Made by a program: the position numbers and the translations under genes. This document shows, in pieces, positions 30,040-54,364 of a DNA stretch of 64,000 bases (positions are counted from its first letter, which is position 1; every line of letters starts with the position of its first letter). This DNA comes from Octopus vulgaris (taxonomy: Eukaryota), in NCBI GenBank assembly GCA_951406725.2, contig OX597819.1, positions 69,874,001 through 69,938,000 of the forward strand. The letters run 5' to 3'. A model generated the notes under the pieces. It was not told the origin of the DNA. It made no database searches and worked only from the letters and a program-made list of their open reading frames with translations.

Positions 30040-32500
30040 AAATTGAAAGTTTTAGCATCTAATTGTTGGTTGTTTCAAGGTATTTGGCTAGTCCGATTGT
30101 GGTGGTTATGTACGTAAGTTCAAGCTGGATCAAGCCTCGAGCTCCCTGAGCTCTGGGTAGGTAAAGACAATCCACGTCTGCCTTTGGATGTTGCATCTTA
30201 TTTCAAGTCAGTAGCTTGCGGATTTTTCTATCAATTTTCATTATTTCACTGGTATTCCAGTTAAGCACATTGAAGCTATAAAGAACAACTGGGACTGCTA
30301 AGGAATTTATGGCTAACACCTTATTATATGCATTCAGCTCAGACTTCATGACTGCTCGAACTCTTCTATAACATTCTTTCTTAACCTTCTCTTTCATGCT
30401 TGCAAGCTGGATTCCAGAGCCTTCATTTATTCCTAGGTATTTATAGGTTTGTTCCTGCTCAAGTTCCTTTATTACTGTTTCGACATCTATTTATTACTGT
30501 TTCGACTTTACCAATTTCCCTTTCTTAAAAGTGGCTTTGGCACACTTTTCAAGGCCAAACTCCATCCCGATATCATCACTGAATCCTTTCATAATATGTA
30601 GTTGTCCTTCAAACTCTTCATCATCTTAGCCATATAGTTTTAAATCATCCATATAAAATAGATGGCTTATTTTCCTGTTGTCAATTTTGTAGCCATACCC
30701 TGTTCTATTCAGTTCACTCGAGAATGGTATTAGTGCTATGCAGAAAATTAGTGGTCAAAGTGAGTCACCTTGGAAAATGCCAGAGTTTATGCTAATATTG
30801 TCTGAGCGCAATACTCCATTAGAATGGTATCATTGGAGCTTCGTGTTCATTGTGACATGTAATTTAAAAAAGCTGAAATCACAGAAGAAATTTTGAAAAT
30901 GTCCAGCGATTTCAGAATCCATGAATATGGTATGCTATCAATGGCTTTTTTATAATCAATCCATGAAGAGCTGAGATTTCTGCGCTTGTTATGGTAGTTC
31001 TCAATGATCATGCGATTAATTAGGAGCTGATCTTTGCATCCGTATCAGCCTCTCTTCCATAAACGTATGTTTTCTCCACTAGAATAGATGTCAAACTCTT
31101 ATAGGTAGTAGACAAACATGTTATAGGCCGGTAGTTTTTTGGGTTTTTGGTTTTGTTGTTTGCGGGGAGGAGGTAAGTAATACCATTTGCCATCCAATGG
31201 GGAGTTTTTTCCACGTTTTTCATAATATTATTAAATAGTACTACTAACATTTTGTGTGAGAACGAGAGTGATGAGAGCCAGAAATTTGGTACTCTATCAA
31301 TACCAGGGGATTTCCACTTATGAGCCTTCGTTAGTGCCCTCCTTAGGTCGGCGATTAAGATGTCTTCCCATACCTCTTCTTGTAGCTTTTTGTAGGCACC
31401 TTGGGTGCGTTTGACCCAGTCTGCATTTTCATTGTATGGTTTCTCATCACTCCAGATCTCTTTCCAAAAGTTTTCAACTTCTTTCATTAGGAATGGATTT
31501 TCAATGGTTATTTTTTCTTTCCCTATTTCCCTGTAAAATGATTTGGTATTGGATTTGAACATCTTATTTTGCTTGTAGTATTTGATTCTTTTCTCAAATC
31601 TGCGTATTTTCTGGACTTTTGCTTGAACATTTTTGTTAAAGTGTTTCTTTCGCTGAGATTAATTCTTCTCTTGTTGAGAGTCCATATATTCTCACAATAT
31701 TCCTGCCTTTTCTTGATCTTACACCGTTTCCAGAGATTAGCTCAGTTAATATTGATACCTCCTTTCGCAATGATTCAATCTCAGTTTCAATTCTACTCCT
31801 CCAGTTTGGTTTTCCTTTCGAATTTGGTATTGTTGTCTTTTTAGGCATTAAACAGCGTCTTTCGGTTACCTTAGCAACAGAGTAAATAATTTCAGTTAAC
31901 GTATTAAGGTCGGGTTTTAGTTGTTGGATGATTTCTTGTGTAACGCAGTTGCCAATTTTTATTTGTGTTTTATGTTGGTGTGCATTTGAGAGTTTATGGA
32001 GTGGTTCCCTATCATACCAATTTGTATGCCCTACAACTGCAAGCTCATTCAGAACTTCCTGCTTCATTTCAATGATAGATTTTCTGTGTTGTTCAGCAAA
32101 TATTTGGTCTTCAAATTCTGTCTGGTATTTCTAAAGATATATTTCTTCTAACATTTGCGAATCTGTTTTCATCCAGGTTTGGTCTGCTAGCTGAATTCCG
32201 GCTCCTCTAAATTCTGAAGGAGTTTGTGGTATGTTTCTCTTGGGTTGGCCTACTTAATGCAAAGTAATATGCGTACATTACTTCTTTATATTCTTCCCGG
32301 CTCCATTTAGTTCTTTTACATTTTTGATTTTGTGGTTGTTGTGGTGGTGAACTTTGGGGGCTTAATTTGGGACAAATCCCGTTTACATGACATTCCAGGT
32401 TCGTATTCGGGGAAGATTTTCTGCCATTAGAAAATTTTTTGCCGTCAGGCTGACAGCCTCCTGACGGGCACGCTTCCAGAATAACCATTGGACAAGCGAT
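30040..32500 (-). mobile_element. R4/Dong-clade non-LTR retrotransposon, N-terminus plus RT, frameshifted and 3'-truncated
   Basis: RTKWSREEYKEVM, WKSPGIDRVPNFWL, NYRPITCLSTTYK, WIDYKKAIDSIP, GIFQGDSL, SHLFYMDDLKLY, GMEFGLEKCA, YKYLG, HPKADVDCLYLPR; 5' side is adjacent to (TAA)n at about 32620-32665. Confidence 0.9.
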
Positions 32501-32625
32501 TCGGTGTATTGTTTGAAATTTTCTTTTCTTTTTAAGTAAAGTTAAATTATTATTACATTTTCATTTTTTAGAAATATTTTAAATTAGTTTACTTATTTTT
32601 TATTTTATTAATTTTATTATTTTAC

Positions 32626-32662
<37 letters not shown>

Positions 32663-32751
32663 TATATATATATATATGTATAATTTATATTATTATTTAA
32701 CTGAACGCCACGCATCCATTTCCAAGTATGTATATATATATATATATATAT

Positions 32752-33290
32752 ATAACATAAGGGACTAAAGCCATCTGAATATGGCTAGGGACAGGGCAGG
32801 GTGGTGGGGGTGTTACTGTTGCATTTAGCCCCACCACCCTGCCCTGTCCCTAGCCATATTCAGATGGCTTTAGTCCCTTATGTTATCGAGCAGTTACTGT
32901 CTATATCCCTTTTAGAGAATTATTATTGCTTTCGAACAGATTTTCGAAATCAGCAAATGTATTTTGCTTGAAAATCTATATAAGAAAATCCTGCAGAGTG
33001 AGAATTCGTCGAGGAAGCGGAGGCCTACCACACGCCGATGATAGGCAATACACCTTGAAACCATGGTCCGTGTGTGGTTTCCGCTTCATCGGGGAATTAC
33101 CTCCCTTTGCAGGTTTAGGGCACCGTGACGGTGTCGAGCCTTTCTGGTGACGTCGATGTTCGCCTGGGGCTAAATGCAACAGTAACACCCCCACCACCCT
33201 GCCCTGTCCCTAGCCATATTCAGATGGCTTTAGTCCCTTATGTTATCGAGCAGTTACTGTCTATATCCCTTTTAGAGAATTATTATTGCT
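32752..33290 (+). mobile_element. Retrozyme/Penelope-pLTR-like module: 360-bp unit with exact direct repeat and fold-back inverted repeat
   Basis: 32829-32930 equals 33189-33290; 32752-32832 is the reverse complement of 33166-33246; inserted in (TA)n; contains a hammerhead. Confidence 0.8.
33014..33087 (+). ncRNA. Type I hammerhead ribozyme with variant core
   Basis: Stem I cacacg/cgtgtg extended by gaagcggaggcc/ggtttccgcttc; core CCGATGA at 33035-33041; stem II agg/cct; GAAA at 33057-33060; palindromic stem III ACCATGGT; GUC site at 33066-33068. Confidence 0.75.
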
Positions 33291-33308
33291 ATATATATAT
33301 ATATATAT

Positions 33309-33506
33309 ATAAATGAAAGAAAGGAGTCGAACGAAGATGTTAACAAAATTCCTTTACTCTCGACACATGTTTCGAAGACAGCATATTTTCATTCCGAAGG
33401 AATAAAGGGTTCATTCCTTCGGAATGAAATATGCTGTCTTCGAAACATGTGTCAAGAGTAAAGGAATTTTGTTAACATCTTCGTTCGACTCCTTTCTTTC
33501 ATTTAT
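33309..33506. repeat. Near-perfect inverted repeat (arms about 95 bp, 9-nt spacer), Penelope-style fold-back
   Basis: ataaatgaaagaaaggagtcgaacg...ggaat / attcc...cgttcgactcctttctttcatttat; each arm carries the hammerhead 3' half cGAAACatgtGTC. Confidence 0.9.
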
Positions 33507-33659
33507 TCATATACAACACATAAATTTCTACACTGAACCCGGAGTTTCTACCCTTGACAGGTCGCTTCAACCGTGTTTTCTGACGTGAATTTGCTACCCA
33601 GGTTTCGGTTAAACGAATTTTCCATGCTGACTATAAACATAGGATAATTCATTCACCTA

Positions 33660-33734
<75 letters not shown>

Positions 33735-52565: not shown

Positions 52566-54364
52566 GTTCTTGAAAAGGCGAGGAGTTCATTTTAGATTTT
52601 ACCTTGTGTTCCAATGGGAGCAACAGTAATGATTTTTGGTCGGTGTCTGCTCGCATAATTTTGGTGAATTTTGTGATTGTTGGATTTATATCAGCTCAGC
52701 TAAGCTGTGGTCACTTGAACTTTTCACTGACGTCATATAGTTCCAAACCAATCAAAACCCAGTCTCAACAAATATAGTGAAAAGACTCCTAACTGTATCC
52801 TGTTAGGAAACCAACCAAGCGGAACGACAGTTTGGCCACGGAAGAAATACGTCATCATTTTTTTGACGAATCGAAATTAGATCTGACCCATGACTGTATC
52901 CTGTTAGGTGGCTAGTCCAGCAGAACGAGACTTCATCAATGTTTTGACCAATCAGAATCGGGTCTGACCCATAGCTGTATCGTGTGGGGAAACCGACCAA
53001 GCAGGGTGACAATAGCTTGACCACTAAGGTAATACGTCATCAGTTTTTTGACGAATCAGGATTAGATCTGCTCGTAGAGAAAGAGATATTTTTATAAATT
53101 TTCCTTCCCTAAGACATATCACTGTCAGCGTGAGTGACTGTTTAAGGATCTGAGAAATTGTAATTCGCCCCACCTCCATTATTATAATTCTCTCACTGTG
53201 GCCGTAGCAACAGTGACCACGGTGGTTGTAGTAGTAGTGCGAGTTGAGGCAGTCGTAGTGGTTGTGGTAGAATTTCGTTTCTCTTTTTCGGAGGACCAAT
53301 GTTTTGTTTTAATATTCCTGGCCCAGGGTGTTCAAACTTGGTCTAAATTCTTTGATGAAATAAAGTTTGATGAAATAAATATTTTGGCGTTGCGTGAAGG
53401 TTACGCTGTCACTGAATTTATAAAGTGGGTAAGTTGTAAATTTCGGATTTACATTTGCTGACCGGTATTTTCCGGTATTCAGGGTTTCTAATTTGTGATT
53501 TATGCACCGCCATCCTGTTACGTAAGCTATTTTTTGTATGGCCTATATACTGCCTATTGCAGCCTGCGCATGTTAAGACGTAAATTAATTTTCTGATGCG
53601 CAGGTGAAGTTTGCTCTAATGGTGAACTGATGGCCTTGTTCTAGTATAAATTCTGAACCTTCTACCAAGATGACACAGATTCCGCAGTTGGGCCTTCCAC
53701 ATTTTCTAACCTCTGGTTTTGTGGTTGATGTTGAGTGCAGTTTAGCTTGGGTTAAAATCCTTTTCAAGGATTTTCGTTGCCGTTTACTTTTAATGATGGT
53801 GTGTGTTTCGAGGATCCGGTTCATCTTTGGGTCTCCCTTTAGCAGGGCTGTGCTTTGTAGTATGGTGCTGAAGGCCTCATTGTTGAGTGGGTTGTGTGTA
53901 GAGATGTAGGGAAGGGTTTTTAATTGTTCTTTCTTTTTTGGTTTTGTTTGTCTCAGGTCTTCTATACTTAATTTGATTGCCCTTTGGATTGCACTGTCTA
54001 TTAGGGGCTATGGATAGTTTCTATTTGTGAGTGTGGTTCTAAGTTCCTGGAGACGTGTGTGTCGGGTGTTTGTGTCTGATATTATGGTGCAAATCCTTCT
54101 AGCTAAACAAAAAGGGACGTGGGTGGCATGAATCAAAGGGTAGGTACTGTTTGGAGTCTGTCGGTTTATAGTAGATATCTGTCTCTATTTTGTTGCTGGT
54201 TTTCTTAATGAGGATGTCTAAAAATGGTAATTCTTCTTCGTTATGATCCATCGTGAATTTTATATTATCATTTATTCCATTTAATAGTATATATAACTAT
54301 TAATATATATATAGAAACAAACATGGAGTTCTGGGGGTAAATAGGAAATATAAGGGAAGTAAAA

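Follow-up and report, generated by a model that had tools for sequence, protein, structure and literature searches.

A two-armed insertion of a 360-nt non-LTR retrozyme family in the Octopus vulgaris genome, probably copied by a Penelope-like element

The module at positions 32752 to 33290 of the window (the whole stretch of 64,000 nucleotides of Octopus vulgaris contig OX597819.1 that was analyzed) is best explained as a two-armed insertion of a non-LTR retrozyme, which the EN+RT protein of a Penelope-like element (PLE) likely copied in trans into a TA microsatellite. A probability of about 0.8 is given to this reading. The 360-nt family of which the module is a member is real, young and well constrained, and is a non-LTR retrozyme of an already known class. 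The following features were located in the window.

32752..33290, strand not assigned, complete two-armed insertion belonging to the 360-nt family, located within a (TA)n run
32829..33290, + strand, forward arm (L020), 462 bp, consisting of the full unit 32829-33188 followed by unit 1-102
32752..32833, - strand, inverted arm, 82 bp, consisting of unit 337-360 followed by unit 1-58
32829..33188, + strand, 360-nt non-coding repeat unit, matching a common young haplotype exactly
33247..33290, + strand, 44-nt PLE-type tail between two fixed 3' ends
33029..33074, + strand, predicted type I hammerhead, based on motif and covariation
32991..33111, + strand, predicted long extension of stem I (unit 163-283), based on fold and partial covariation
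32731..32753, strand not assigned, left (TA)n target run
33290..33311, strand not assigned, right (TA)n target run

The exact 102-bp direct repeat with a period of 360 described in the sequence-only reading was found again (32829-32930 = 33189-33290), as were the TA runs at both flanks of the module. The fold-back copy is exact, as had been claimed, with a measured length of 82 bp in place of 81 bp (32752-32833, previously 32752-32832), and it pairs exactly with 33165-33246. An overlap does join the arms, with five nucleotides (CCCCA) and not the four (CCCC) first given. The 3' end of the forward arm lies at a start site designated S2 (unit 102) and that of the inverted arm at a start site designated S1 (unit 58), and the 44-nt tail is present on one arm only. 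The fold-back is a second, oppositely primed arm such as most copies possess, and no separate oddity, and the 102-bp direct repeat is a by-product and not an LTR. The length in excess of one unit (about 1.3 units) was correctly described, and its origin can be refined to a fixed 3' start combined with a variable 5' stop. No convincing ORF had been seen, in agreement with which the longest two frames that cover the unit, measuring 77 and 98 aa from stop to stop, gave no Pfam match at E<=1. The predicted circular fold of the unit has an energy of -116.7 kcal/mol (z -5.3). A single hammerhead is carried by the window copy, which would therefore yield no unit-length monomer by double cleavage in cis.

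A search for further genomic copies had been proposed as a check, and a search of the octopus genome (2.8 Gb, 227 contigs) with the 360-bp unit revealed many, a large number of them head to tail. At least 243 matches were obtained from the best 40 of 709 candidates, and the full-length rows among the matches listed were 97-100% identical to the unit. Head-to-tail arrays extend to approximately 15 units, and older subfamilies fall to approximately 82% identity. Exact copies of the 34-nt hammerhead core number 817 genome-wide, while the exact junctions of unit 102 and unit 58 with TA number 768 (S2) and 527 (S1), respectively; the reversed control patterns of the two junctions occur 0 times genome-wide. 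The earlier suggestion of a young retrozyme-like family mobilised by a PLE enzyme is supported by the number of copies, by their tandem arrays, by the covariation and by insertion ends of the PLE type. An older sister repeat family of approximately 340 nt was also observed (L205-L234; example copy L211:1470-1830), with a related tail, the canonical core CUGANGA and other stem III palindromes. A degenerate tail pattern for this sister family gave 421 matches, a few of them being ends of the 360-nt family, and 30 loci were examined.

The anatomy of the family was derived from 147 distinct insertions, of which 46 were recovered with the unit or the core, 11 with unit 1-102, 40 with the 102 end and 31 with the 58 end; the other 19 were chosen with both ends listed and were left out of the pairing count. 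The 3' ends fall at two sites 44 nt apart, S1 (unit ~58) and S2 (unit ~102). Of 91 two-armed insertions, 84 have their arms divided between the two sites, one to each, which is the layout of the window copy. The exceptions were one S2+S2 insertion, the second arm of which measures 42 bp, no S1+S1 insertion, and six with an end elsewhere. Where ends had not been selected, 32 of 46 insertions were two-armed and 28 of these 32 had the S1+S2 pairing. TA repeats follow 65 of 74 insertion ends. Target duplications were identified in seven of the 147 insertions (12, 12, 13, 13, 13, 13 and 15 bp), those of the remainder being mostly unreadable in TA runs, with one further 9-bp match in an AAT repeat. 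A variant carried by all other units is missing from the last S1 bases of two arrays, and these bases are therefore likely target-derived. The 360-nt family thus carries the footprint of a PLE: (TA)n targets, duplications of 12-15 bp and two fixed 3' ends. At one locus (L069:1753-1987) the arms are joined through a rearranged piece of the unit and approximately 110 nt of foreign sequence, possibly a template switch.

An inverted truncated copy, a tail at one end and microsatellite targeting are established features of PLEs (PMC8557442; PMC3846280). The 360-nt family resembles the EN+ Neptune-type elements of the cited accounts in its partial tandems, its inverted 5'-truncated copy, its tail at one end only, its AT-rich or (TA)n targets, its target duplications (approximately 8-15 bp in PLEs), its tail-delimiting 3' ends and the presence of a hammerhead in the repeat. 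The tail is 44 nt long here as against the 30-40 nt published for PLEs. In contrast to the PLEs so described, the 360-nt family has no ORF, and both of its arms can be multi-unit arrays; no sequence link to autonomous PLEs was found among the loci examined. The 360-nt family does not qualify as an autonomous PLE, but it behaves in the manner of cargo carried by a PLE. A purified anole PLE protein cuts and extends both strands, and two internal start sites delimit its tail, the start sites being reported as not different between the strands (PMC11167929). Compared with that enzyme, the near-strict pairing of one site with each arm adds a constraint.

Candidates for the helper were sought among GIY-YIG matches, the best 150 of 6,136 candidates being scored. 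At least 16 lie within open frames of 781 aa that are 94.6-100% identical to the reference. The encoded protein contains RT and GIY-YIG domains together with a cysteine linker, which has been described for Neptune and Nematis elements (PMC8557442), and the intact element is, by its predicted domains, a Neptune-type PLE. It adjoins TA runs, has two 3' ends approximately 40 nt apart, with one per arm in L190, and close to its end a U3-A8 hammerhead, the stem III of which is palindromic, can be made out by eye. Its tail is no closer to that of the 360-nt family than shuffled sequences are (892 and 612 of 1000). An ORF-bearing element with the tail or unit of the 360-nt family was absent from the 50 GIY-YIG loci, which held two incidental sister-repeat matches, and from the 30 tail-variant loci. 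Likewise, no PLE ORF with RT and GIY-YIG was found in the module or, at the loci examined, contiguous with the family arms. On geometry and age the 781-aa element is a plausible driver of the 360-nt family, and the suggestion that a PLE RT mobilised the module gains support, among other evidence from the family, from insertion ends like those of a PLE. In full-length copies of the Neptune-type element (L188, L196 and L198) an upstream frame of 479 aa, for which no convincing Pfam match was obtained, overlaps the 781-aa RT-EN frame (L188:768-2207 and L188:2126-4471). PLEs are usually described with a single ORF. A Neptune-type fragment with 76-95% amino-acid identity to the 781-aa protein is present in the window itself (53312-54281, - strand). 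A search for an autonomous partner through the canonical core combined with the same palindrome gave two copies, both at one unrelated locus; there (L093:1490-1985) two canonical-core hammerheads with the same stem III palindrome lie 434 bp apart in otherwise unrelated sequence.

The elements of the type I hammerhead were found at the positions proposed in the sequence-only reading. Stem I is formed by 33029-33034 and 33069-33074, the core by 33035-33041, stem II by 33042-33056, the GAA by 33057-33059 and the palindromic stem III by 33060-33067; C17 is at 33068, and cleavage is predicted after C33068. Two departures had escaped that reading, namely the core CCGAUGA (U4C) and a U-U mismatch at the opening of stem II. 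Recognition by the Rfam hammerhead models, which had been put forward as a check, failed: none match 32930-33190 at E<=10, and no hammerhead family was among the matches listed for the whole window or for the module alone. The matches listed in the window are to models of microRNAs and snoRNAs, lie on simple repeats and hairpins, and all fall short of the gathering scores. Within its segment the hammerhead fold is not that of minimum energy (-32.5 vs -39.9 kcal/mol). The long stem is much more stable than shuffled sequences (z -4.9, 0 of 200), and the outer helix beside the internal loop of the stem I extension covaries, four of its five pairs being changed on both sides.

Stem covariation, on which the earlier claim had been made to depend, is present over 26 variants. 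The alignment contains 26 of 33 distinct rows from this family and the sister family, four junction-derived rows (L004, L016, L022 and L120) having been left out together with three rows that differ from the youngest haplotype and occur in one copy each (L042, L078 and L079). Among these rows, which are related sequences picked by a pattern demanding part of the motif, 90.6% of 520 cells are paired as against 80.0% in shuffled data and 21-50% (at most 49.6%) in slid controls. Double-sided changes number 79 as against 28.7 in shuffled data, and two of five covariation measures (pairs with a double change and further pair types) are not above shuffles. The 3-8 tertiary core pair is kept in all 26 rows as C-G (18), U-A (4) or U-G (4), a covariation known among natural hammerheads (PMC3088659; PMC4209133). 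G5, A6, A9, GAAA and C17 are invariant, most of these being fixed by the finding pattern. Six different perfect palindromes occur in stem III, with all four Watson-Crick pair types at the palindrome centre, as expected if two ribozymes pair in order to cleave, and the predicted energy of the palindrome duplex is -11.2 kcal/mol. U4C gives considerably lower activity in vitro, yet allows viroid infectivity (PMC3088659), and eight of nine Xenopus dimer elements are reported without cleavage in vitro (10.64898/2026.07.22.740005). From these sequence patterns, selection on a dimer-type hammerhead is well supported.

According to the favored course of events, tandem arrays would be transcribed, pairs of hammerheads would cleave via the palindromic stem III, and the monomers would be ligated into circles. 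The PLE protein would nick both strands of AT-rich DNA approximately 12-15 bp apart, and cDNA synthesis on the RNA would be primed by each DNA 3' end, starting at unit ~58 for one of them and at unit ~102 for the other. Both cDNAs would pass the unit boundaries and the cleavage site for 0.1 to approximately 15 turns, and microhomology would join the two 5' ends. The circular template, the weakest step of this explanation, is slightly favored over a tandem transcript. A more specific proposal is advanced tentatively, in which a dimer of the PLE protein would reverse-transcribe a single RNA circle made by the ribozyme, with twin target priming and in rolling-circle mode, the two strands priming at their own fixed sites 44 nt apart and both polymerases running round that circle to yield back-to-back arrays of one haplotype. 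If this is true, the PLE tail would record both active sites of a single complex, and nature would have left in this family a record of animal retrotransposition from a circular template, with selection on a dimer-dependent hammerhead that is tuned down (U4C).

Arms longer than one unit account for 121 of 248, and 52 exceed two units (>720 bp), with a maximum of 5,304 bp. The 5' ends coincide with the cleavage site in four of 248 arms as against 4.1 expected; ends at the ribozyme cut site were accordingly rejected, and the template is therefore not a cleaved linear monomer. A peak of 5' ends was observed at unit 286-300, where 35 of 248 lie; it is located immediately 3' of the long stem and suggests that the polymerase stalls there. 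In 34 insertions of at least 1.1 kb, five complex ones being excluded, both arms are mostly of one haplotype, over up to 22-23 units. Among 93 young insertions 11 insertion-specific fixed variants were identified, eight of them on both arms; four are fixed over 3-8 copies of one insertion and absent from the others of the 93. One-haplotype arms and insertion-specific fixed variants favor a single template per insertion with a bottleneck of one unit, i.e. a circle. Contigs of four runs, the kind of which was guessed, cover the unit, and three of the four join it back at 360, RNA and DNA as well as circle and tandem being indistinguishable in them. The fixation of A-to-I edits in insertions was considered and is not supported, A>G accounting for three of the 11 variants, equal to T>C and to G>A in this small sample.

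A PLE-driven insertion could also have copied an uncleaved tandem transcript of a genomic array, the youngest hammerhead being weak and a circle unneeded, and this reading too is held tentatively. It agrees with the U4C core and the stem II mismatch, with the lack of an excess of 5' ends at the cleavage site, and with the anole PLE, for which cleavage is dispensable and unprocessed RNA is reported as the main substrate in vitro (PMC11167929). A minority variant occupies the same rank on both arms in two of 65 two-armed insertions (L075 and L079), and the arrays of L086 and L081 repeat variants at intervals, both of which fit a multimeric template or later conversion and not a monomer circle; the patterns of L086 and L079 are not cleanly periodic, and periodic variants were rejected as proof of multimer circles. 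Against these two shared events stand 44 minority variants found on one arm only. The four variants that are each fixed over 3-8 copies within one insertion suggest a one-unit bottleneck, with the caveat that 147 of several hundred insertions were sampled and homogeneous source arrays may be missed. Retention of the 3-8 pair and of the palindrome across subfamilies likewise speaks against a template that is never cleaved.

It is improbable that the copies are pLTR stumps of an autonomous PLE and not an independent non-autonomous family. The tail, the inverted arm, the TA targeting and the hammerhead are all features of pLTRs (PMC8557442; PMC4209133), from which retrozymes have been proposed to derive (10.64898/2026.07.22.740005). 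However, the arms are pure head-to-tail units up to 5.3 kb with no coding body, the matches to PLE proteins in the neighborhood of family loci fall beyond the arms, and the sister family with the same tail also continues into a non-coding unit of its own. In addition, the hammerhead is canonical, with a 6-bp helix I plus internal loop and a short helix II, and not of the minimal type described for PLEs (PMC4209133). More improbable still is a satellite expanded by recombination at the DNA level, or a palindrome within a TA run that was wrongly assembled. A few arrays have repeated variant patterns and could be local duplications, but the 147 dispersed insertions with different 5' junctions, two fixed 3' ends and seven target duplications, and the subfamily haplotypes that are coherent across both arms, argue against it.

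The 360-nt family is closest to the metazoan non-LTR retrozymes (PMC7229834; 10.64898/2026.07.22.740005). It has a non-coding unit within the range of approximately 150-450 nt in head-to-tail copies (350-390 nt in mussel, 330/350 nt in axolotl and 360 nt here), one type I hammerhead of canonical form per unit with a weak palindromic helix III, retrotransposed dispersal with no true LTRs, target duplications of more than 4 bp, a GC content below 50%, and PLEs in the same genome. The U-U mismatch at the base of helix II is shared with HHR_Amex2 of axolotl. Li et al. 2026 (10.64898/2026.07.22.740005) take at least two consecutive hammerhead units to mark an 'active' retrozyme; the window copy has a single one, while two occur in further family members, namely those with arms of >720 bp. 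In contrast to the published retrozymes, the core is variant here (U4C; U3-G8; U3-A8) and the extension of stem I is very long. Circular RNA and cleavage have been shown for published retrozymes and are proposed for the 360-nt family. No description of the insertion anatomy mapped here (two fixed starts, paired arms) was found in the retrozyme accounts cited; 'inverted', 'octopus' and 'cephalopod' have 0 occurrences in the main text of PMC7229834. No literature was found that deals with retrozymes of cephalopods or with retrozyme footprints of the tail and twin-arm kind, and the supplements of the retrozyme papers may list such families.

The class and the proposed mobilisation by PLEs were already known, and the window copy is a daughter with a single hammerhead. 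For the enzyme by which animal retrozymes spread, proposals have been based on co-occurrence and on similarity to pLTRs (PMC7229834; 10.64898/2026.07.22.740005), and the replication cycle of PLEs is described as only partly resolved (PMC11167929). In the 360-nt family, footprints of PLE-type insertion left in the genome by a ribozyme repeat without protein can be counted: a near-strict rule of one site per arm, duplications of 12-15 bp and passage of the copies through the cleavage site. In addition, its RNA is short and defined and has predicted start sites, which would suit it to in vitro work, and variants of the hammerhead core and palindrome are available as a natural series.

Two other repeats were observed close to the module. 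A broken non-LTR retrotransposon is located at 30200-32560 (- strand), its 5' part ending beside a (TTA)n run; one piece of it gave a weak RVT_1 match (E 0.023), and its motifs are reminiscent of R4/Dong-type elements. A second fold-back repeat, with arms of 87 nt that are 97% complementary, is located at 33302-33661. It directly follows the right TA run of the module and ends in another TA run, and relatives were identified in six of the loci examined; it may be another PLE-type two-armed stump.
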